Source: Candidatus Colwellbacteria bacterium RIFCSPLOWO2_01_FULL_48_10
GTDB lineage: Bacteria > Patescibacteriota > Minisyncoccia > UBA6257 > Colwellbacteraceae
Length of the DNA: 26,826 nucleotides
Assembly: GCA_001817755.1 (NCBI GenBank)
Contig: MHIY01000012.1
Coordinates: forward strand, 11,145 to 37,970
Reading direction: 5' to 3'
Shown here: positions 1 to 23,819 of the stretch, one piece after another
How the letters are laid out: each line of letters opens with the position of its first letter
Numbering within the stretch: position 1 is the stretch's first letter
Program-made: the position numbers and the translations under genes
The notes under the pieces: model-generated
The model's input: only the letters and a program-made list of their open reading frames with translations
What the model was told of the DNA's origin: nothing
The model's database searches: none

Positions 1-187
1 ATTCTTCTACAGAAACTCCAGGGAAAAGCTTAAATTCTCCAGGCTTTGAAGTCAGAATAGGAGATATTGCACCTGGATACTTATTTCGTAGAGTTGCAAC
101 GTCTTCACTAAAATCATCTCTTAATATCAATTGTAGAATCTCCAACCATTTTTCTTTATTTTTTGTGAGATATTTCTTTTGGCGCAT
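1..187 (-). CDS. Hypothetical protein, N-terminal part only (runs off the window start)
   Basis: ATG at 187 on the minus strand, open to base 1 (MRQKKYLTKNKEKWLEILQLILRDDFSEDVATLRNKYPG...). Read by hand; absent from the ORF track because there is no stop in the window. Confidence 0.55.
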   Translation of the reverse strand, partial: MRQKKYLTKNKEKWLEILQLILRDDFSEDVATLRNKYPGAISPILTSKPGEFKLFPGVSVEE

Positions 188-280
188 TATTGTCAGGATA
201 AGGTCTTTGGGGTATATTTACAACACAATTTAATAAGAAAGTAGCCTAAACCAGTAGTAATGCTGGCATGGCTCAAGAAT

Positions 281-379
281 CCTCTCATCGATACCAAACT
301 CCACGTTTGGCCAACTTCGATGAGAGGTCACACCCGAAAGGGTGTGGATGCCGCAAGGCATCAGGTCGGCGTGGAGTTT
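281..379 (+). ncRNA. Structured element: pseudoknot plus two GNRA hairpins, class unknown
   Basis: 281-291 pairs with 317-327 (11 bp); 296-305 pairs with 370-379 (10 bp); cacaccc-GAAA-gggtgtg 329-346; gatgcc-GCAA-ggcatc 347-362. Confidence 0.4.
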
Positions 380-401
380 TGTGTTTTTATAGAAAATTTA
401 A

Positions 402-752
402 ATGAATATGAAAAATAAAAGTGTCGCTGAAGAGGTTTTCGAAAAAATAGAAAAGGAACAGGCTCAATGGGCTGCTATGAGCGATATTGAGCGTGATCAA
501 GTGGTAAGGTATAAAGTTAATCAATCGCTGATCCTACAAAAAGAAAAGGCGGAAGCAGAACAAATCGAAAGAAAAAGAAATGAAAAACATCCAGTTGTTA
601 CATTTGTAGAAAGTCATAAAATTCTGGCTCCAATTATTTTTTGGGGACTTTGGGTGCTTCTTCTATGGTGGCTCATGGTGAGAAGTGATGTTAAACCTGA
701 TTACGATTTTCCAAGTGAGAACTATGAGAGTGTTGATAGCTATGGATTCTAA
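402..752 (+). CDS. Hypothetical protein with one C-terminal transmembrane helix
   Basis: 116-aa ORF; charged helical N-terminus, hydrophobic stretch ILAPIIFWGLWVLLLWWLMV. Confidence 0.7.
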   Translation: MNMKNKSVAEEVFEKIEKEQAQWAAMSDIERDQVVRYKVNQSLILQKEKAEAEQIERKRNEKHPVVTFVESHKILAPIIFWGLWVLLLWWLMVRSDVKPDYDFPSENYESVDSYGF

Positions 753-804
753 TCATGAGTAAAAAATTATTTAAGAAGAGTAGAGATAGATCCTCTCGAT
801 AACC

Positions 805-1536
805 ATGAAAAAAACAATATCCGCAATAATAATCTTAGTTGTTTTGTCTTTTGGGTTTCCTTCGATTGCCAATGCAGCGTGGTGGAATCCATTCTCTTGG
901 AAAGTTTTCAATAAAACTATAGCTCCACCAGCTATCCCGCCTTCTTTAACTGAAGCTTCGAATATTCCTCCCGATACTAGTGATAAATCAGCAGAGATAA
1001 TTAAATTGAAAAGAGAAATAGAGGAACTGAAAAAGAAGAACGATCAGTCTAGCGCCAAGCCAAAACTATCGACACCTCCAGTTGCTGCGCCCAAAATTAT
1101 TCCTAAACCAACGCCTGTACCTCCTCCTTTTGCAACGTGGCAAGAATTAGAAAATAAACATTTTCCGGAAGCGGATCAGAATGGATGGGCTACACTTTAT
1201 ATTACTAACCAAGAAGGAGAAAAAAGATATTATTACAAAAATAAAGATCAGTGGATTAGAGCGAATAGTGAGCAGCATGCTAGGAGCGAGAGGTATTTTA
1301 TTGAGACATGCGCAGATAAACCAAAAGACATGGCTACAGCCGAATTGTGCTTAGAATTAGCCGGCCAAAGAATAGGATTTAAACAGGGCTGGTATGACGG
1401 ATACAACGAGGGATCTCCCTATTCCCCGCCACCTTCTTATTCTGCTCCACCAACACCATCGTTTTCTGAAACCATGCGTCAACATGAAATGTGCGATCTT
1501 GTTGATGGCCTATTCTTTGACGGCAAGTGTTATTAA
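805..1536 (+). CDS. Secreted/surface hypothetical protein with Pro-rich linkers
   Basis: Signal peptide ending ANA|A followed by WWNPFSW, a short coiled coil and Pro-rich segments. Confidence 0.8.
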   Translation: MKKTISAIIILVVLSFGFPSIANAAWWNPFSWKVFNKTIAPPAIPPSLTEASNIPPDTSDKSAEIIKLKREIEELKKKNDQSSAKPKLSTPPVAAPKIIPKPTPVPPPFATWQELENKHFPEADQNGWATLYITNQEGEKRYYYKNKDQWIRANSEQHARSERYFIETCADKPKDMATAELCLELAGQRIGFKQGWYDGYNEGSPYSPPPSYSAPPTPSFSETMRQHEMCDLVDGLFFDGKCY

Positions 1537-1611
1537 TAAAATTTATACTGGAATATTGTATTTAGCATCTCATAGCGCTATATTTGAGCCTAATCTGGTT
1601 AAAAACTTTAT

Positions 1612-4600
1612 ATGGCAAATGATGAGATTTCCCCAAATTCCAATAGCCCCAAGAAGCTTCCTTTCAAACTGGATGATCGGCAAGAAATAATTTATGAACG
1701 TCTTAATAGGCTGGTTGGACCCGGAGCGGCTGCATTTTATAAAGATGCCTGCAGACATCTAGTCATAGATCCTTCTTTTGTTGCGGTTACTCATATCGTT
1801 GCGCATCTACTACGAGAAATCGAGAGCGCTCTACGCGATGTTCTAGAGTCTGTGACTGGCCCAACTCAGGAGAAAGAAGGATTGAAAGAAGAAGAAAAAC
1901 ACAGGCAAGAAATCGAATTAATTTTAAAAGCCCTTGGTTTTAATGAATCTGATTTAATTTCTAAAGTCTGGCTTGAATTGCCTGGTAAGAATGGCCTGCA
2001 AAGATACGCTCACCGAAATAATCTCGAAGCCGCAAGGCCATTGGATCAGGTTTTCTTAGAACTTTGGTCTAGAATGCAAATTATTTTGGGCAATGTATTA
2101 GATAGGTTTGAAACTCAATACACTAAAGTTTTCGCATCGATTGATGTATTGGTTCAGAAAGCTAATCCAACCGAATCAGATGCAAAAATAATTAAATCGA
2201 ATATTCCAAATAACTTTGTCGCTCACCAAAAATTCTTTAGCCAGTTGGAGAATCCTAAATGGCTTCCTTTACTTAAAGAAAAGGAGATGTTCTTGGACCC
2301 TCCGCTGGCAGAACAAAATCCCGAAGAAGGAACTGTAAGACATATGCCTTGGGCTGCAACTGTTTATTTGGAGAAAATGGCCACCATAAATCCATCCTTA
2401 GTCGCCGAGGTCTTGCGAGAAATCAAAGATACAGATAATTCGACTGTTAGATCAAGTCTGTTGAGAATAGCGTCTCTTTTGCCTAGCAGCGAAAGAGAGA
2501 CAGTAAGTGACAAGATTAGGAAATGGTTAAAGGTAGATCATCAGTTTTTTCAGAGCACCCTATTAGAGCCTAGTACAATATTAATGAATAAATTCATCGA
2601 AGACGGTAAAGAAGATAAAGCTTTCGAAATTGCGAAAACACTTTTAGAGATTCTCCCTAATTCTAGCCCTATAACCACTGACGAATATATTTCACTTCGA
2701 GATCCAAAAACGCGACTAGACCATTGGCATTATAATGAGTTTTTAGAAAAAGAGTTTCAGACATTAATACAACTTAATCCTAAATATTCCTTCTCTCTAG
2801 TTTCTGAATTACTTTCTGAATATTTTAAATTAAGACGTGAAGCGCGCCAGGATAATATTGATAACTATGAAGATCTGTCTTATATTTCGCGGCCAGCAAT
2901 TGAGGATCATGACCAAAATAGGGACCGCGAAAATATTGAGGATGCTCTTATAACAGCGATTAGGGATATTGGGTTAAAGATGATTCAGGAAAATCCAACA
3001 ATAGTAGAAGATCTTATAGAAGAATTAGAAAGCAAAAAATGGACAGTTTTCCGCAGAATAGCTTTATACCTCTTAAGCGAGTATCCAGAAAAATCAATAA
3101 AGTGGTTGAATAAGTATTTACTTGACCTGACTCTTTTCGATAGTTCTGATGTTAAACATGAATACGCCCGGCTGATGAATAAGGGATTCCATTTGCTGAG
3201 CAGAGAGCAAAAGGAAAAAATACTAGATTGGATTGATAAGGCTAAAGTTATTACAGAACATATTGAGGAACAAAATAGAGAGAATCCTATAGAAGCAGAT
3301 AGGGCAAGGAAATTTAAAGAGGTTTGGCAAAGAGATCGTCTCTCACATATAAAAGATGATTTAACAGATATCTGGGGAACCCGATATATTGATTTTATTA
3401 GTAAGTATGGGGAACCAGAACATCCGGATTTCGCTGCATACAGAACTGAATGGATTGGTCCTACTAGCGAATTTAAAGCTGAAGACTTAATCAATATGGA
3501 CGTAGATAAAATGATTCATATTCTTAAAACTTGGGAACCTAAGGAGGATTCTCATGGCTTTGGTGCAACCAAAGAAGGTTTAGGGAGAGAGCTTGGAGTA
3601 GCAATAAAATCTAAGCCAGATTACTTTGTTATAATCGCAGAGAAATTTAAAGAATTAGACCCAACATATGTCAGAACTTATATCCAAACATTCTCTGAAA
3701 TAATTCAAAATGATTATAAGCTATATTGGCTTCCAGTCCTTGAGTTGGCACTATGGGTTGTTCGACAACCGAGGGAGATATTAGGAAGAAAAGGAACAGT
3801 AATGGATCAAGATCCTGATTGGAGTTGGACGAGAAAAGCTATCGCATCTCTAATTTCCAGAGGAGCGAATGATAATCAAATTCCTTATGAACTTCGCGAT
3901 AAAGTTTGGCAAATTCTTAAAGAGATAACTCTTGATCCCGATCCTACTCCAGACGATGAGATTAAACGCGAGGAAAATACAGACGATGCCTACCACCTGG
4001 CAATAAATACCACTCGTGGTGAAGCCATGAATGCAGTTATTGAATATGCTCTTTGGGTATATAGATATGTTAAAGATCAGCCGAATGGTGAAGAAAAGAT
4101 TAAGGAGGGATTCTTATTAATGCCTGAGGTGCGGGAAACTTTAGAATGGCATTTAGATCCTCAGAATGATCCTTCTATTGCAGTCAGATCAGTATATGCG
4201 AGATTCTTCCCTTGGTTATTGTTATTAGATAGAAAATGGACATTAGATCATATAAATAAAATCTTCCCGATAAAACAACCAGAAGATCGACTTTATAAAG
4301 GAGCTTGGAATACTTTTATGCTATATACTCCAGCCTATAATGATCCGTTTAAACTACTTCAAGAACAATATATGGAAGCAGTAAAAAATCTAGGAAAAGT
4401 AGATAAAAAGCGTAAAAGATTTACTGATAGAGATGAAAGGTTGGCAGAACATTTAATGCTTTTCTACGGCCGAGGGCAAATAAGTTTATCAGATTCCCTA
4501 TTCAAAGAATTTTGGGACGCAGCAAATGATGACCTTAGAGGCCACGCTTTAGGCTTTATCGGGCGCCTACTACAGAACAAGGAAGGCGATTTTGATCCGA

Positions 4601-5037
4601 GCACTTTAGAAAGGCTAAAACTTCTCTGGGAAAATAGATTAGAAATAGTAAAATCTTCTGTAGATAAAAGTGAACACGAGAAAGAAATGTCTGCTTTTGG
4701 TTGGTGGTTTTCTTCAGATAGATTTGATCCTAAATGGACCAGTAACCAATACTTAGAAGCTTTAGAAATCGGTAGAGAAACGCAGTCTGATTACTTTGTA
4801 TTCAAGCGATTGGTTGAAATAACTGAGGTGTTACCGGTTGAGGCGGTAAGAATACTCAATAAATTGGTCATGCCAGATCAGCCTGGCTGGACCATATTTG
4901 GTAATAAAGGCGAGATAAGAAGTATTCTTTCCAGGGCCTTAAAGGCTCCTGAGAATATAGCTAAGGAAGAAGCGAAGAATCTTATTAATCGTTTAGTAGC
5001 AAAAGGATATACGGAATTTAATGATCTTCTAAGCTAG
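1612..5037 (+). CDS. Large alpha-helical protein (1141 aa), candidate antiphage sensor-effector
   Basis: Uninterrupted 3.4-kb ORF. N-terminal ~170-aa domain with HLLREIE and LQRYAH motifs (HEPN-like by eye), then ~950 aa of Trp-studded helical repeats. No Walker A motif. Function is inference. Confidence 0.85.
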   Translation: MANDEISPNSNSPKKLPFKLDDRQEIIYERLNRLVGPGAAAFYKDACRHLVIDPSFVAVTHIVAHLLREIESALRDVLESVTGPTQEKEGLKEEEKHRQEIELILKALGFNESDLISKVWLELPGKNGLQRYAHRNNLEAARPLDQVFLELWSRMQIILGNVLDRFETQYTKVFASIDVLVQKANPTESDAKIIKSNIPNNFVAHQKFFSQLENPKWLPLLKEKEMFLDPPLAEQNPEEGTVRHMPWAATVYLEKMATINPSLVAEVLREIKDTDNSTVRSSLLRIASLLPSSERETVSDKIRKWLKVDHQFFQSTLLEPSTILMNKFIEDGKEDKAFEIAKTLLEILPNSSPITTDEYISLRDPKTRLDHWHYNEFLEKEFQTLIQLNPKYSFSLVSELLSEYFKLRREARQDNIDNYEDLSYISRPAIEDHDQNRDRENIEDALITAIRDIGLKMIQENPTIVEDLIEELESKKWTVFRRIALYLLSEYPEKSIKWLNKYLLDLTLFDSSDVKHEYARLMNKGFHLLSREQKEKILDWIDKAKVITEHIEEQNRENPIEADRARKFKEVWQRDRLSHIKDDLTDIWGTRYIDFISKYGEPEHPDFAAYRTEWIGPTSEFKAEDLINMDVDKMIHILKTWEPKEDSHGFGATKEGLGRELGVAIKSKPDYFVIIAEKFKELDPTYVRTYIQTFSEIIQNDYKLYWLPVLELALWVVRQPREILGRKGTVMDQDPDWSWTRKAIASLISRGANDNQIPYELRDKVWQILKEITLDPDPTPDDEIKREENTDDAYHLAINTTRGEAMNAVIEYALWVYRYVKDQPNGEEKIKEGFLLMPEVRETLEWHLDPQNDPSIAVRSVYARFFPWLLLLDRKWTLDHINKIFPIKQPEDRLYKGAWNTFMLYTPAYNDPFKLLQEQYMEAVKNLGKVDKKRKRFTDRDERLAEHLMLFYGRGQISLSDSLFKEFWDAANDDLRGHALGFIGRLLQNKEGDFDPSTLERLKLLWENRLEIVKSSVDKSEHEKEMSAFGWWFSSDRFDPKWTSNQYLEALEIGRETQSDYFVFKRLVEITEVLPVEAVRILNKLVMPDQPGWTIFGNKGEIRSILSRALKAPENIAKEEAKNLINRLVAKGYTEFNDLLS

Positions 5038-5043
5038 TGATCT

Positions 5044-5330
5044 ATGATCTCAAAAGAGATGCTAGAAAAGTATAAGACTATTTATCGAAAGAAATTCGGT
5101 AAAGATATTTCTGATGACGGAGCTCTTACGCAAGCGACAAAGTTGGTAACCCTAATTAAGGCGGTATATAAGCCGATGACCAAGGAGGAATTTAAGCAGC
5201 TATAGTCCCCGCAAAACAAAACCCGACATTGTGGTGTTAAATAACCAAGTAAATCAATGGTTTTCTGGATTACAAATGAACGTTTTGTTTTACGGGGGCT
5301 ATAGAAAAAAGACGTAAGGAATTGGGTTGA
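5044..5330 (+). pseudogene. Small protein gene interrupted by a MITE (53 aa as is, 61 aa when restored)
   Basis: MISKEMLEKYKTIYRKKFGKDISDDGALTQATKLVTLIKAVYKPMTKEEFKQL stops at TAG 5203-5205, supplied by the insert. Removing 5203-5303 restores ...KQLEKRRKELG* ending at TGA 5328-5330. Confidence 0.65.
5203..5301. mobile_element. 99-bp MITE, IS630/Tc1-mariner-like (TA duplication at CTAG)
   Basis: 20-bp terminal inverted repeats tagtccccgcaaaacaaaac (5203-5222) and gttttgttttacgggggcta (5282-5301), 18/20 match; TA on both flanks (5201-5202, 5302-5303); the empty site reads CTAG. Confidence 0.75.
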
Positions 5331-5340
5331 TAATTTGCTA

Positions 5341-5674
5341 TAATATCCTTAATACCACCCCCAATTATTCGTCACAAACTACGTTGATTACCTCCCGTGT
5401 TTAGTGGGATCAACGAGTTTATATTTACTCCCCGGCTTCGGAGTAGGAGGAAAGGGCTCACCCTTAGTAACGGTGCGCTCTTTTCCTGTGTTGCCTCTAC
5501 GTGGACCAATAATTTCATATTGGCCTGAACGCTTGGCTTCCTCGCCAGGTCTAAAAGTCTTTCTCATAAGACAATAAAAGTTGTTATACGAGTTCGACGG
5601 CTCGTTGCTGCTAATTGCAGCAAGTGGTCAACCGCTTGCAGCAAACGAGATTAGGGGTGGTATCAAAGATATTA
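5341..5674 (-). repeat. 25-bp inverted repeat bracketing the YjzC-like gene
   Basis: 5341-5365 vs 5650-5674, 22/25 identical; all three mismatches become G-U pairs on the minus (mRNA) strand. Confidence 0.8.
5388..5567 (-). CDS. YjzC-family small protein (59 aa)
   Basis: Hand translation: MRKTFRPGEEAKRSGQYEIIGPRRGNTGKERTVTKGEPFPPTPKPGSKYKLVDPTKHGR*. The PGE..SGQY..GPR..PPT..D.TKH pattern is YjzC-like. Below the ORF-track size cutoff. Confidence 0.78.
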   Translation of the reverse strand: MRKTFRPGEEAKRSGQYEIIGPRRGNTGKERTVTKGEPFPPTPKPGSKYKLVDPTKHGR

Positions 5675-5905
5675 AGATACTAACCTAAGTTTTATATAGG
5701 AATATCTATAAGTCAAAAAAGAAATGCAGACATAGACCACCCTTTTGAAAAAGATTTTGTATCTTTGGCTGGCGCCCTCTCCCGTTCTAGGATCCTAATC
5801 ATTAACTATATTGCCTATAAGTACCCGATTCTTTGGGCTGGGGGGTCGGTTCCAAGTCAGATTCACCAGAATACAGTGAGTGGCATGGTGGGCTACTCGG
5901 ACGAA

Positions 5906-5998
5906 CTAAGAGGTTGCAGCAAAACTAGTCTGAATCTGCTTCCATTCTCTCAATTCCTGGATAATTCGGTTCCAGTCAAATATACTTAGGTCTACTAA
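5906..5998 (-). pseudogene. Possible orphan C-terminal tail of a recombinase, read inward from the att site
   Basis: LVDLSIFDWNRIIQELREWKQIQTSFAATS* starts exactly at the degenerate att copy and has no start codon of its own. Family assignment is from recollection and unverified. Confidence 0.33.
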
Positions 5999-6026
5999 CG
6001 AAATAAACCTTACTAGGTTTATTTTT

Positions 6027-6159
6027 GTAGTCCGGGGAAGCGAACGGGAAGGGGGTCGGGGAAACGGAAGTTTTCCCGTGGCGGAAATATTAAAACCGCT
6101 GGGTTTTAAAGCGCAGCCGCCAAGAGCGGCGAGCAGTGAGACTCCCCTTGGGACTACCA
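6027..6159 (+). repeat. tRNA-3'-anchored structured element, copy 1 (ends in a tRNA-type 3' end with CCA, possibly tRNA-Glu-derived)
   Basis: gtagtcc 6027-6033 pairs with ggactac 6151-6157; three internal hairpins; shares GGGTCGG, CCGTG.CGGA, GCG.AGCC and GGCGAGCAG.GA.ACTCCC blocks with the copy at 23523-23654. Confidence 0.7.
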
Positions 6160-6288: not shown

Positions 6289-6561
6289 ATGAAAACAACG
6301 ACGAGTGTAAAAATCGACAAGAACATCAAGGAGGAGGCGGCCAAGCTAGCCTCTGAGATGGGCCTGAACTTGAGCAGTGTCATTAACGCTACTCTAAAGA
6401 AATTTGTCGATGAGAGGCGCGTCGTATTCAATGTTTCTCCGGAATTCAATGTCGAAACCGAAAAAGAATTCGCAAAGATCAGGGAGGAGATAAAAAACAG
6501 GCGTAATGTTGTTGGACCGTTCAATACTGTCCGTGACCTGAAAAGGGCTCTCTTGGATTAA
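6289..6561 (+). CDS. RelB/DinJ-family antitoxin
   Basis: N-terminal ribbon-helix-helix pattern (TTTSVKIDKNIKEEAAKLASEMGLNLSSVINATLKKFV); directly upstream of a RelE-fold toxin. Confidence 0.85.
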   Translation: MKTTTSVKIDKNIKEEAAKLASEMGLNLSSVINATLKKFVDERRVVFNVSPEFNVETEKEFAKIREEIKNRRNVVGPFNTVRDLKRALLD

Positions 6562-6566
6562 CTGAG

Positions 6567-6821
6567 ATGGAGATCGAATACCACCGGAATTTCAAGAAGA
6601 CTTTTCGAAAGCGCGACAAGAAGATCCAGAGCAGATTCTTCGAACGGTTATCTGTGTTCATGGAAAACCAATTTCATTATTCACTTAACAATCACGCTTT
6701 GACCGGAAAATTCAAAGGAGTGAGAAGTTTCGATATCACCGGCGATGTCCGAGTTCATTATGAACAGGTCGGCGACGTTATTGTCTTGATCAATATCGGG
6801 ACACACAGCGAGCTATATTAG
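6567..6821 (+). CDS. RelE/YafQ-family mRNA interferase toxin
   Basis: 84 aa with NHALTGKFKG.RSFDI.GD.R and the C-terminal IGTHSELY typical of YafQ-like toxins. Confidence 0.9.
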   Translation: MEIEYHRNFKKTFRKRDKKIQSRFFERLSVFMENQFHYSLNNHALTGKFKGVRSFDITGDVRVHYEQVGDVIVLINIGTHSELY

Positions 6822-18108: not shown

Positions 18109-18627
18109 ATGCCATTAGGATTAGATCAGAATTTAACCGAAAAGGATTATCAAGGGCTCCTTACTGCCCTCGACAAGACGGCACTCGTCTCAATGACCGA
18201 TAATAAAGGAAACATTCTCTACGCCAATAATAAGTTTATTGAGGTTTCCAAGTATTCTCTACCCGAACTTTTCGGACAGAATCACAGGATATTAAAATCA
18301 CATCAGCAACCTGATGAGGTGTTTGTTGATCTTTGGAAAACGATCTCGAGTGGCCAAGTCTGGAGAGGAGAAATCAAGAATCGAGCTAAGGATAGCACAT
18401 ACTATTGGGTTGATACTTCAATAGCTCCGATCCTTGGATCCGATGGCAAGCCAGAAAGATATATTTCGGTCAGATTCCTCATCACCGATAAAAAGAATGT
18501 TGAGGAGGCCGAAAAGAAACGCTCTGAAGAAATTGAGAAAATGAACAAATTTATGATAGATCGGGAGTTAAAAATGGTGGAATTGAAGAGAGAAATTGAT
18601 AACTCGAAAAAGCAACCCCCGTTTTGA
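18109..18627 (+). CDS. Single PAS/PAC-domain protein with a coiled-coil tail and no output domain
   Basis: TDNKGNILYANNKF.EVSKYS..EL.GQNHRILKS...W.TI..G.VWRGEIKNRAKD..YYWV (Aer/NifL-like PAS), then RELKMVELK and stop. Confidence 0.9.
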   Translation: MPLGLDQNLTEKDYQGLLTALDKTALVSMTDNKGNILYANNKFIEVSKYSLPELFGQNHRILKSHQQPDEVFVDLWKTISSGQVWRGEIKNRAKDSTYYWVDTSIAPILGSDGKPERYISVRFLITDKKNVEEAEKKRSEEIEKMNKFMIDRELKMVELKREIDNSKKQPPF

Positions 18628-18631
18628 ATAA

Positions 18632-18694
18632 TCTCCGACACGGGAAACCGGTCGCGGTTTCCCGACCCCTTCCGCTGTTCGAATCCTTGCCTCC
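18632..18694 (-). repeat. tRNA-3'-anchored structured element, copy 2 (partial; tRNA-Ser-associated)
   Basis: Minus strand reads ggaggcaaggattcgaac (near reverse complement of the tRNA-Ser T-arm/acceptor), then ggggtcggg-stem-cccgtgtcggaga as in the other copies. Confidence 0.6.
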
Positions 18695-18696
18695 AT

Positions 18697-18735
18697 ATAC
18701 AAATTCAGCGCCCAAAATGGGCACTGAATTTGTAT
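18697..18735 (-). terminator. Hairpin behind the displaced tRNA-Ser 3' end
   Basis: atacaaattcag(c)gccc-aaaat-gggc(a)ctgaatttgtat; the single mismatch is U-G on the minus strand. Confidence 0.6.
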
Positions 18736-18813
18736 TTGCGGAGGGTAGTGGACGATGTTAGAACCTATTTTGAGATGAATGCTGGTCTATTCCACGTACC
18801 TTCTATGAAGTAA
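18736..18813 (+). pseudogene. Possible orphan recombinase C-terminal tail
   Basis: LRRVVDDVRTYFEMNAGLFHVPSMK* begins inside the att direct repeat and reads into the cassette; no start codon. Family resemblance is unverified. Confidence 0.35.
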
Positions 18814-18838
18814 TGCAACGTCAGATTTGGATTGAAGA

Positions 18839-19765
18839 TCAGAATTGACCGGTTTTAAGAGGCGATTTATTTGGATCTTCTATGCATTGACCGTCTTCAG
18901 GGCAATTTTCGCTGCCAGCAACAACTTCTTTATATTCATAAGCTCCATTATCACGCCATTTGAATTCAATAACCTCACCAATATTTTTAGATTGTAAAGT
19001 TTTTGTATCAAGAAGCATCCTATATGGCACATGCTCTCCACAACCCCAACATCTAAATAGATCTATAACGGCGTATCTTCCGCTATCATCAAAGGCTTCA
19101 ATTTTTGGAATCGCATAATTTCCGAAAATCATGGGTGGGATAATTTGTAATCCTTTATTTGGATCGGTCAGTGAATAAAGATAGATTTTATATCCGCTAT
19201 CTGGAAGTAAGTGCGGCGTGCCAAAATTTGGCCCCCATTCCGTATAAGATCGATTCCAGTCCATGACAAATAAAATATTATCTTTCGTAGGGCTAACTTG
19301 ATAGCTAAACAAACTGTCAGAAACTGATGCGTCTGGATATACCTTGGGATTTTGTAAACTATTAGAGACAAGAGCTGTCCACTGATACTTTCCTGGGTCT
19401 ATATTGGGAATCCCTACCGGATCAAAACCGTCATCTTCGTTATAAACGGTTACTATATTTCTTCGCTGATCTCTCTTCGATTTATCAGGATCCGGAAAAC
19501 CATAATATATAATTGGCAAGCTTAAATTAATCTCTGTTTTAAACAGTATCTTTGAATCAGTCTTCGTGAAAGAAACAGAGGTTTCTCCAAGTATTGGTGA
19601 TTTATTTGGGGATGGGCTTATATCAGCCGGCGCTGGTGCAATGTTATTAGTTGTAGTCGCCGAATTGTTTCTATAAATGGCGAACCCAGCGGCGCCAATA
19701 ATTCCCAGAACAACTAAAACACCAATTAAAATTGGCAACGCAATAAATCCTTTTTTATTTAACAT
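18839..19765 (-). CDS. Surface/secreted protein with a pilin-like N-terminal signal
   Basis: MLNKKG|FIALPILIGVLVVLGIIGAAGFAIY resembles a class III signal; Thr/Pro linker; soluble domain with CWGC and CPEDGQC. Confidence 0.8.
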   Translation of the reverse strand: MLNKKGFIALPILIGVLVVLGIIGAAGFAIYRNNSATTTNNIAPAPADISPSPNKSPILGETSVSFTKTDSKILFKTEINLSLPIIYYGFPDPDKSKRDQRRNIVTVYNEDDGFDPVGIPNIDPGKYQWTALVSNSLQNPKVYPDASVSDSLFSYQVSPTKDNILFVMDWNRSYTEWGPNFGTPHLLPDSGYKIYLYSLTDPNKGLQIIPPMIFGNYAIPKIEAFDDSGRYAVIDLFRCWGCGEHVPYRMLLDTKTLQSKNIGEVIEFKWRDNGAYEYKEVVAGSENCPEDGQCIEDPNKSPLKTGQF

Positions 19766-19845
19766 ATTCAGAATTTTACCATAAAGTTCTAATGTCCTAT
19801 CTTCCCCTCAAGAAAAGTGTAGGAAGTAAGAGCTAATCTAATTTG

Positions 19846-19934
19846 CGGAGGCGGAAGGATTCGAACCTTCGAGGGAGTTTTACCTCCCTAACAAGTTAGC
19901 AACCTGCCGCTTTCGGCCACTCAGCCACGCCTCC
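19846..19934 (-). tRNA. tRNA-Ser(GCT)
   Basis: GGAGGCG acceptor, GCAGG-TTGCTAA-CTTGT anticodon arm, long variable arm, GGTTCGAATCC, G73. Confidence 0.97.
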
Positions 19935-19956: not shown

Positions 19957-20955
19957 CTATTCTTTGTATCTCTTCAAGTGTTTTGGGTTATGAGAACTAA
20001 TGATCTTGAAATATTTTTCTACGTTCTTTGAGGCGCTAATTGTTAGATGCCTTTTGTTGCGGTTAGGGTTCAGACCTAGTTTTGTGAGGATCTCGACAAC
20101 AGATTCAAACAGGGGCCTAGAAGCACTTGAGAATTCTATTTTTTTATAACTATATCTTTTGCCGCCAACCCTATATTTATGGATGACAACAGATCCGTCA
20201 GTATCAATCAATCCTCTAAGACATGCAATCTGAAAATCTTTACTAGCATTTATCCAATCAGGAATATCTAGCCGTTGCTTGATCTTGTGGCCTAAGGGCA
20301 GACCAAGTCCATTAGTACAAAACTTAACCAGTTCTGTTCTTGAGACAAAAATTGTATTAGCTAGAGAATCGCCACGTTTGTGCACTCCGGGCATTACCCC
20401 GAAAAGTTTTCTAATTAATTTAACGACAAAATCTTTATATTGGTCATCGGTGATTGAATGCAGTGTTATAGATATTTGTCTTTCAGATACGCCGCCATCA
20501 CCCATCATGATCCCAACGAATTCAGCAAGATCACTGCTCTCAGTTGGTATTTTGATCTGCTTCGGTTCTAATATCTTGTTCTTAATAAATTTGCCTTCGC
20601 GATTCCACCAATTCCTCCAAGCGGTTTTCCTTTTTTCTGAATCGCCGCCAACTGATCCATATTTTGCGATTATAGCTTTGCCACCAAGAGAACCAGCGAT
20701 TCTAACATGATCATAGCGCCCGCGTATTTCAAATTTAGGCACCTTAATCGATGCAAGCCTCGTCAGCTTTCTAACTGTTAGGAGCGGCATTAAGAACTTT
20801 TCGCGGTGCCAATCACTAATTGCGCGCTCGCTAACTTTTAAAAAATTCGCCAATTCTTTAATAGATCTACCACTCTTAGTGAGAATATTTTCGATAAACG
20901 CCCTTTGCTTTCCTTCCTTAAAAACTACTCTCTTGGAATTCAACAATTCAGCCAT
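19957..20955 (-). CDS. Double-motif LAGLIDADG endonuclease-like protein with N-terminal HTH
   Basis: LAEFVGIMMGDGGVS and ACLRGLIDTDGSV motifs; HTH-like SIKELANFLKVSERAISDW. Confidence 0.88.
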   Translation of the reverse strand: MAELLNSKRVVFKEGKQRAFIENILTKSGRSIKELANFLKVSERAISDWHREKFLMPLLTVRKLTRLASIKVPKFEIRGRYDHVRIAGSLGGKAIIAKYGSVGGDSEKRKTAWRNWWNREGKFIKNKILEPKQIKIPTESSDLAEFVGIMMGDGGVSERQISITLHSITDDQYKDFVVKLIRKLFGVMPGVHKRGDSLANTIFVSRTELVKFCTNGLGLPLGHKIKQRLDIPDWINASKDFQIACLRGLIDTDGSVVIHKYRVGGKRYSYKKIEFSSASRPLFESVVEILTKLGLNPNRNKRHLTISASKNVEKYFKIISSHNPKHLKRYKE

Positions 20956-23522: not shown

Positions 23523-23654
23523 TGCTCTCGTGGGAGTTTCGCTGCTCGCCCCGCCAAGGCGGGGCTACGCCTCGAGAACCCTCGGTTCTCGAGGTCTCCG
23601 ACACGGTCCGACCCGGGTCGGACCGACCCACCCTTCGTTCAATTCCTCACTTCG
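23523..23654 (-). repeat. tRNA-3'-anchored structured element, copy 3 (tRNA-Arg-associated, complete)
   Basis: Direct repeat tgctctcgtg at 23523-23532 and 23658-23667; three perfect hairpins; 14-bp perfect reverse complement of the tRNA T-arm at 23637-23650. Confidence 0.75.
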
Positions 23655-23657
23655 TTG

Positions 23658-23729
23658 TGCTCTCGTGAGGAATTGAACCTCAATTTGCTCCTTCGCAGGG
23701 AGCCGTCCTATCCGTTGAACGACGAGAGC
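23658..23729 (-). tRNA. tRNA-Arg(GCG)
   Basis: GCTCTCG acceptor, D-loop with A20, GCTCC-CTGCGAA-GGAGC anticodon arm, TGAGG-TTCAATT-CCTCA T-arm; CCA not encoded. Confidence 0.95.
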
Positions 23730-23819
23730 TTGCAGGCCTAAATATAGTTTCTTACAGGTTTTTTTTCAAATTTGGTGTTTGCGAAGCAATTTTATTTTAT
23801 AAGCCACATCACAAAACTA

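Follow-up and report, generated by a model that had tools for sequence, protein, structure and literature searches.

The sequence behind the tRNA-Arg(GCG) gene in the window (the whole stretch of 26,826 nucleotides analysed here) appears to belong to a family of small, non-autonomous integrative elements that encode no protein and would enter the chromosome by Campbell-type recombination, by way of a folded single strand and with an enzyme acting in trans; we give this reading a probability of roughly 0.55. The family is apparently undescribed. Its members, about 130 to 250 bases long (130-250 bp per unit) and devoid of open reading frames, are found in Patescibacteria at the ends of tRNA genes, of the tmRNA gene and of a few essential protein genes. 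In outline, this agrees with an earlier note on this DNA, which had listed a non-autonomous, tRNA-targeting mobile element among its candidates: the many copies, their patchy occurrence, the tandem arrays, the precise T-loop junction and the lack of reading frames all speak for such an element.

Scanning the 746-kb, 34-contig genome revealed the same core behind many of its 39 tRNAs. Two covariance models were used, one describing the 5' module (R1) and one the full length (R2). The covariance-model scan suggested in the earlier note proved productive: R1 identified 14 copies in the source genome and detected the family in 25 of 40 order-level relatives, with a maximum of 15 copies per genome. 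Beyond the order the distribution is patchy, R2 finding the family in 11 of 150 other Patescibacteria genomes, from several families, in a phylum-wide sample. In the fetched loci, 83 copies were recovered with R2. A loose version of the core pattern, run against public genome contigs, gave mostly chance matches in high-GC genomes, and the few specific matches were to records titled Parcubacteria, Paceibacterota, Saccharibacteria or Staskawiczbacteria. The DNA runs that contain the window are groundwater and soil metagenomes; among RNA runs, none was found to contain it. An Rfam 15 covariance search with the three window copies returned nothing at E <= 1; the core pattern had no match in viral contigs, blastn gave none in the phage and plasmid collections, and a full-text literature search found no description of the design. 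The statement that no named element is built in this way thus holds for all of these sources.

The copy at tRNA-Arg is composed of the following features, listed in the direction of the tRNA:

23741..23769, minus strand: promoter-like site TTGAAA-17-TATATT, upstream of tRNA-Arg
23657..23729, minus strand: host tRNA-Arg(GCG), intact (ARAGORN; Rfam tRNA model, 59.6 bits)
23637..23650, minus strand: arm GTGAGGAATTGAAC, perfect antisense of the tRNA-Arg T-loop and T-stem 3' strand (sequence read)
23543..23636, minus strand: conserved folded core of the tRNA-Arg copy (fold, models R1 and R2, covariation)
23533..23542, minus strand: element-borne right junction GCGAAACTCC, which replaces the T-loop and is a variant of the family sequence GTGAGAC/GTGAGAT
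23523..23532, minus strand: direct repeat CACGAGAGCA, a second tRNA-Arg 3' end

Six nucleotides separate the end of tRNA-Arg from the arm, a perfect 14-mer reverse complement of the tRNA segment GTTCAATTCCTCAC lying 14 nt past it, just as had been pointed out. The core begins with the G-rich linker GGGTGGGTC and hairpin 1 (GGTCCGAC/GTCGGACC) and continues through the linker GTGTCGGAGA, hairpin 2 (CTCGAGAACC/GGTTCTCGAG), hairpin 3 (CCCCGCC/GGCGGGG) and the linker CGAGCA. No terminator-like site was called in the tRNA-Arg locus between 23350 and 23850. In the minimum-energy fold predicted for a tRNA-Arg co-transcript (-108.6 kcal/mol, z = -6.2), the T-arm pairs with the arm over 14 bp and the 5' strand of the tRNA pairs with the distal repeat, an arrangement that would disrupt the tRNA, as the earlier note had supposed. 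Both full copies in the window are more stable than their shuffled versions (z = -3.6 and -2.8). Metagenome contigs did not yield the empty site predicted for the tRNA-Arg locus, and no excision joint was seen in the contigs of the four DNA runs that hold the window, contigs which break at repeats.

Copies had been reported at 6027-6159 (+), 18632-18694 (-) and 23523-23654 (-), and all three are indeed present, with the common linkers GGGTCGG and CCGTG.CGGA. The features of the other two copies are these:

1..6000, no strand assigned: right part of an 11.8-kb island between tRNA-Glu and the copy at 6027
6001..6026, plus strand: A/T-flanked hairpin (spacer) before the tRNA-Glu-type copy
6027..6045, plus strand: arm GTAGTCCGGGGAAGCGAAC, antisense to the 3' part of tRNA-Glu
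6046..6142, plus strand: core of this second copy, ending in GTGAGAC (fold, covariance models, 114.7 bits)
6143..6157, plus strand: direct repeat TCCCCTTGGGACTAC, the 3' end of tRNA-Glu(TTC)
18611..18676, minus strand: truncated core of the tRNA-Ser copy, no trailing repeat (76.9 bits with R1; R2)
18677..18694, minus strand: arm GGAGGCAAGGATTCGAAC, antisense to the 3' part of tRNA-Ser(GCT), with a 2-nt deletion
18699..18733, minus strand: spacer hairpin ACAAATTCAGTGCCC...GGGCGCTGAATTTGT before the Ser arm
18734..19844, minus strand: later 1.1-kb insertion between tRNA-Ser and the Ser element
19845..19934, minus strand: host tRNA-Ser(GCT) (ARAGORN)

The architecture described for the copy at 6027 stands; its host has to be corrected, being a tRNA-Glu(TTC) gene outside the window, 11.7 kb upstream (contig C12:5382-5454). 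The tRNA-Ser copy keeps the first part of the element only, as claimed, with linker, hairpin 1, linker and a degenerate hairpin 2. Insertions are present at two of the three sites, as the earlier note had said. A large serine recombinase (Resolvase, Recombinase and Zn-ribbon domains) is encoded at the far end of the 11.8-kb island at tRNA-Glu, beyond the window; the island contains no further copy of the tRNA-Glu end. The 1.1-kb insertion at tRNA-Ser encodes a predicted membrane-anchored protein of 308 aa without Pfam match, and the 11 bases at its end (18744-18734), CCTCCGCAAAT, are a repeat of the tRNA-Ser 3' end together with the first flanking bases.

A number of neighboring features were recorded. 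The recombinase of the tRNA-Glu island is 516 aa long (contig C12:5416-6966, minus strand), and its gene reaches with the 3' end into tRNA-Glu(TTC), sharing the final 39 nt of the latter. An 881-aa protein with a winged-helix domain and an 1141-aa protein without Pfam match are also encoded on the island, which harbors a LOOT RNA (RF03000; window 243-362, plus strand, 81.5 bits, E = 3.5e-14). Directly behind the copy at 6027, the stretch 6289-6821 (plus strand) codes for a 90-aa RelB-like antitoxin and an 84-aa YafQ/ParE-like toxin; TsaD and then a class I aminoacyl-tRNA synthetase come next. A free-standing ORF of 332 aa with a LAGLIDADG_3 domain (19957-20955, minus strand) lies immediately upstream of tRNA-Ser(GCT). 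Between tRNA-Leu and tRNA-Cys, a 34-nt segment (12388-12421, plus strand) matches positions 763-796 of bacterial SSU rRNA with 30.6 bits.

Later insertions between tRNA and element affect 4 of the 79 sampled copies. In relative G014, tRNA-Ser is separated from its element by a 14.7-kb island that encodes a serine recombinase together with a type I restriction-modification system (locus L244, contig C1:1-15400); since the island is bounded by a short repeat of flank sequence, it resembles a later insertion into an existing unit. In relative G018, a 2.5-kb insert bounded by GCACAA and carrying a Fic/DOC gene has displaced the copy at tRNA-Arg (locus L249, contig C2:37400-40000). Two of the four insertions bear short direct repeats of their own, of 6 nt (tRNA-Arg in G018) and 11 nt (tRNA-Ser in the window). 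The 3' ends of tRNA genes are general insertion hot spots, and we read all four inserts as secondary insertions at this usual site. The proposal that the element is a device for keeping att sites available to islands finds no support in these data.

Covariation in the core hairpins is strong. Across 21 modelled pairs in the 83-copy alignment, 92.9% of cells hold a standard pair, as compared to 83.0% after shuffling, and double-sided changes number 172 versus 43. None of 500 shuffles reached either value, and the covariation signal was lost when pairing partners were slid out of register. The contention that the hairpins differ in sequence and nonetheless stay paired is thereby borne out. Non-Watson-Crick cells in hairpins 1 and 2, read on the tRNA strand, comprise 41 G-U and 12 A-C combinations; in the arm stem the numbers are 23 and 21. 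The excess of G-U over A-C indicates that the core hairpins are selected as a folded single strand of tRNA-sense polarity, either RNA or DNA. Pairing of the arm without strand bias is what would be expected if the arm is made or kept at the DNA level. Folding energy also favors the tRNA strand over the antisense (66 of 78 copies); however, this strand is G-rich, and the strand inference therefore rests on the G-U and A-C counts rather than on energy. The tRNA-sense strand of the family core also displays runs of G (GGG-AAA-GGGG-TC-GGGG followed by GTGG.GG, for example at 6046-6062), which, from their sequence, could form a G-quadruplex in competition with hairpin 1.

The usual order of elements at a locus is gene body, T-loop GTTC, gene end E1, spacer, arm, core, GTGA or GTTC, and second gene end E2. 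The spacer is often a terminator-like hairpin flanked by A/T residues. The arm is the reverse complement of the T-loop, of the 3' strand of the T-stem and of part of the acceptor strand. Within the core, a G-rich linker (..GGAAAGGGGTC) is followed by hairpin 1, a GTGG.GGA linker, hairpin 2, whose top is conserved (AACCG..GGGTT), a variable hairpin 3 and ..CGAC. Attachment to tRNA genes, which the earlier note had taken as the rule, applies to 57 of the 79 sampled copies; these lie just behind a tRNA on the same strand, from overlapping with the arm to approximately 140 nt downstream. At least 35 isoacceptors host copies, and the occupied sets vary between genomes. The part of the claim that did not stand concerns exclusivity. 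Four of the 79 copies follow tmRNA genes, and protein genes serve as hosts at their 5' end (typA, on contig C33 of the source genome, lepA and rnhA) or 3' end (pyrG). Given these additional sites, the family must be regarded as targeting conserved gene ends generally. The functional gene always lies on the same side of the element, so that at 5'-end targets the element is antisense and upstream; the pyrG copy is downstream and sense.

That the leading segment tracks the local tRNA, as had been predicted, is confirmed by scoring: with the local tRNA the arm reaches a score of 11.7, as opposed to 7.3 with other tRNAs, the local one being best or tied in 39 of 57 cases. The trailing repeat does so more strongly (17.4 versus 7.6; in 44 of 57 cases no other tRNA equals the local one). 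For 47 of 53 copies the real tRNA, and not the 3' flank of the element, is the better complement of the arm, because this flank usually starts with GTGA and not GTTC; the closer match to the resident gene copy also fits copying of the arm from the local gene. In many copies, identity with the tRNA resumes exactly at T-loop position 57, after the element-borne GTGA, while in GTTC-type copies it starts at position 53. From there the gene-end repeats extend to the gene end over a variable length (about 10 to about 70 nt). They include flanking sequence absent from mature tRNA and have no added CCA. Pairing with the acceptor stem does not tell the native gene end from the other, the two copies being identical in 48 of 53 cases and the resident better paired in the other 5.

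Partial genes accompany some of the elements. On contig C1 of the source genome (10700-11090, locus L014), a partial copy of the 3' third of tRNA-Pro(GGG) stands behind tRNA-Pro(TGG); 35 nt are identical to the real gene on contig C17, and the partial copy has an element of its own, whose core is of another type. Behind tRNA-Leu(TAG) there is likewise a partial tRNA with an element (locus L012). At L219 (188-382, plus strand) and at L171 and L048 upstream of typA and lepA, the displaced gene start opens an upstream ORF running through the reverse complement of the core. ORFs of this kind end at or just before the real start codon and, at rnhA, the stop overlaps the ATG region. As read from these sequences, the arrangement suggests translational coupling with the real gene; the open frames may also be a mere effect of the pyrimidine-rich strand.

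The protein genes allow the history of the two gene ends to be followed. At four such genes the two copies differ by 52 nucleotides, distributed 13/7/32 over the codon positions (chi-square of about 20 against equal thirds, 2 degrees of freedom). Reading frames are kept, with the start or stop codon in register, and codon changes are 22 synonymous versus 16 non-synonymous, the latter mostly conservative. The third-position excess indicates that both ends evolved as working genes in separate lineages, which means that one of them was imported, as integrative elements do. On this sequence evidence, local duplication followed by decay does not fit.

Units of [gene end-spacer-arm-core] are found in tandem in three genomes, at tRNA-Asp in G014, at tRNA-Lys in G027 and at tmRNA in G004, and at tRNA-Ser of G014 an older, truncated unit stands behind a newer one in the manner of a staircase. 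The closest relative of a copy lies in its own genome in 35 of 73 cases (4.9 expected), although at a different tRNA. Accordingly, cores at different loci of one genome are sisters, and spacers at the same tRNA in different genera are not conserved; a unit pre-adapted to its target fits this pattern only if cores are frequently exchanged or re-targeted. Altogether, the tandem units, the patchy distribution and the clustering within genomes point to a mobile integrative element.

We envisage the mobile unit, which would exist in a free and perhaps circular form, as consisting of a replacement gene end (sometimes with a terminator or promoter), the arm, which would be a short inverted copy of the junction region, and the folded core ending in ...CGAC-GTGA. 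Entry would proceed by recombination in the Campbell manner inside the shared gene-end segment, driven either by homology or by an enzyme supplied in trans. Once inserted, the unit lies at a defined position within a conserved stretch of an essential gene (between T-loop positions 56 and 57 in tRNA and tmRNA genes), the gene body staying joined to a full gene end and the other end copy standing behind the core as a direct repeat. The relevant form would be a single strand of tRNA-sense polarity, DNA or RNA, with the arm turned back onto the gene end and a junction of three to four helices in the core. We favor Campbell-type entry with moderate confidence; it fits the precise left boundary, the variable right boundary of the repeat, the tandems, the staircase and the imported gene ends. 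In a bolder version, the arm and the gene-end copy, kept together by the folded core as single-stranded DNA or RNA, would pair with both strands of a chosen conserved gene segment, and housekeeping functions of the host alone (recombination, repair or replication enzymes) would insert the unit; we give this version a low probability.

No enzyme could be assigned to the family. The earlier note had suggested looking for a co-occurring recombinase or reverse transcriptase, and none tracks the element across the 41 genomes compared. Large serine recombinases, present in 10 of the 41, are unrelated to it: they are missing from genomes with 9-15 copies, and the element is missing from genomes with 2-7 recombinases. 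The single one of the source genome sits in the tRNA-Glu island. Reverse transcriptases (RVT_1, E <= 0.001) occur in 12 of the 41 genomes without relation to copy number, and Y1_Tnp matches in 9 of 26 genomes with the element versus 3 of 15 without it, which again shows no tracking. In the search for Y2_Tnp the control matched nowhere, so that an absence of Y2 matches carries no information. Profile searches of the source genome for TnpB (Cas12f/TnpB) and IS110 (PF01548) gave no match. This genome contains one tyrosine recombinase and one reverse transcriptase. Among five copy-rich genomes without serine recombinase, four hold a single Xer-like tyrosine recombinase each, and none was found in the fifth (88% complete); the genomes searched thus have one Xer-like enzyme or none found. 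The source genome's only reverse transcriptase (C1:47889-48503, minus strand, in a 382-aa frame) is near tRNA-Val(TAC) and adjoins no element copy; nor does a Y1-transposase-like frame of 230 aa (C29:13946-14248, minus strand).

The main rival of the integrative reading is fold-back and template switching during replication or repair. A resident core would be copied, with the arm and the trailing repeat made on the spot: a 3' end folding back at the terminator hairpin or T-arm would copy the gene end backwards, thus producing the arm, and then switch through the T-loop microhomology GAAC/GTTC to an existing core and back again, no dedicated enzyme being needed. Such a process explains why the arm mirrors the resident gene more closely than the element's own flank, and in several copies the inverted repeat is unbroken all the way from the end of the tRNA to the arm, terminator hairpin included. 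It would also suit the locus-specific spacers combined with sister cores within a genome, and the want of a recombinase that tracks the family. It fails, however, on the protein-gene copies, whose ends diverged under purifying selection and whose arms span only 9-14 nt beside the junction, discontinuous with the spacer. A junction precise to the nucleotide in many independent copies is equally difficult to obtain in this way, and a core carried along passively would not maintain a covarying fold with a strand bias. We therefore regard this origin as unlikely. The arm-core module might instead represent the attR side of large-serine-recombinase islands, the small copies being leftovers after island loss. 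Two serine-recombinase islands do lie exactly between the tRNA and the arm-core-repeat, without an inner copy of the tRNA end; but recombinases and elements are distributed independently, as noted above, the G014 island is bounded by its own flank-sequence repeat in the fashion of a later insertion, two further inserts are bounded by repeats of their own, of 6 and 11 nt, and a serine integrase specific for one site could not serve more than 35 targets. This makes the remnant reading very improbable.

A role as cis-acting RNA has to be weighed separately. Co-transcribed with the tRNA, the arm would trap the T-arm, the trailing copy would compete, and precursor maturation would be set by the balance. 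The tRNA-Arg locus lends itself to this view, with its promoter-like site, the lack of a terminator before the element and the very stable predicted fold of the co-transcript; the G-U bias of the core hairpins on the tRNA strand is in line with it as well. From these predictions, a maturation switch is conceivable at this locus, and a regulatory-RNA reading is possible for the Arg copy only. As a general function, the switch suggested in the earlier note is not supported, given the terminator-like hairpins that separate many copies from their tRNA and the opposite placements at typA, lepA and rnhA (upstream and antisense) and at pyrG (downstream and sense). Moreover, the occupied tRNAs vary by genome, 15 of 40 relatives have no copy at all, and four copies lie kilobases away from their own tRNA. 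For the family as a whole we deem this explanation quite improbable.

Other candidates were tried and rejected. Splicing of an intron or RNA would need to work in both orientations relative to the host genes; reverse transcription primed by tRNA is at odds with the absence of added CCA and with repeats that include flanking DNA; and fragments of tmRNA, RNase P RNA or SRP RNA would have matched the respective models, which none did.

The integrative reading places the family near several known systems, and within none of them. Like the phages, ICEs and islands that target tRNA or tmRNA genes (T-loop sublocation class), the element inserts in the T-loop or 3' part, supplies a replacement gene end that keeps the gene intact, is flanked by direct repeats and forms tandem or staircase arrays. 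Unlike them, it has neither integrase nor any other gene, measures 130-250 bp and combines a conserved folded core with a target-specific inverted arm; furthermore, it uses more than 35 tRNAs as well as protein genes, whereas the integrase of known elements normally serves one site. SXT/R391 (5' end of prfC) and phage 21/e14 (icd) likewise insert inside a conserved essential gene near its end, providing a diverged functional gene end and leaving the displaced copy beside the element, but they span tens of kilobases and encode a tyrosine integrase, while here the whole element is non-coding. With MITEs and palindrome elements derived from IS200/IS605, the family shares small size, lack of ORFs, multiple copies, hairpins on one strand and a need for mobilisation in trans. 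It departs from MITEs in having no fixed terminal inverted repeats, because the arm is derived from the target, and no target duplication of fixed length, because the repeats of 10-70 nt extend to the gene end. It departs from the IS200/IS605 type in its long gene-end repeats and in that no cognate transposase tracks it; compared with the strand-specific hairpins of that type, the 41:12 ratio of G-U to A-C in the core fits folded single-stranded DNA and RNA alike.

A parallel in form is offered by integron attC sites and the attP hairpin of CTX phage (XerCD), folded single-strand recombination sites in which structure is better conserved than sequence and the fold is strand-specific. By analogy, a hairpin could rebuild a double-stranded target site on which a recombinase of the host acts. 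The ends of the element (...TCGAAC / GTGAGAT) agree with the attC core sites RYYYAAC/GTTRRRY at 6 of 7 positions, with the stem running outward. On the other hand, no IntI was found here, the target is not dif and the stem sequence changes with the target. Bridge (seek) RNAs of IS110/IS1111 are also non-coding, structured and endowed with segments that match the insertion target; unlike these systems, the source genome has no DEDD recombinase gene that we could find, the two matching segments share one target stretch, and insertion yields a long gene-end repeat. In conclusion, the family lacks the defining features of elements with an encoded integrase, MITEs, IS200/IS605, bridge RNAs, retroelements or DGRs, and Rfam families.

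For the annotation of Patescibacteria genomes, the elements have immediate consequences, as pseudo gene starts and ends arise from them, along with upstream ORFs, tRNA-like fragments and breaks in assemblies; contigs from public runs end at each element copy. The core is in itself a well-supported structured nucleic-acid motif without catalogued relative. If mobile as we infer, these would be the smallest gene-end-restoring integrative elements known, enzyme-less units using dozens of targets in genomes of 0.4-1.3 Mb with almost no recombinases. Their route of entry would then bring to light either host machinery put to a new use or a hidden partner, for instance an enzyme from a phage or plasmid. 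Should the guided version prove true, the family would represent a programmable, nucleic-acid-guided integrative element that operates without a dedicated recombinase.
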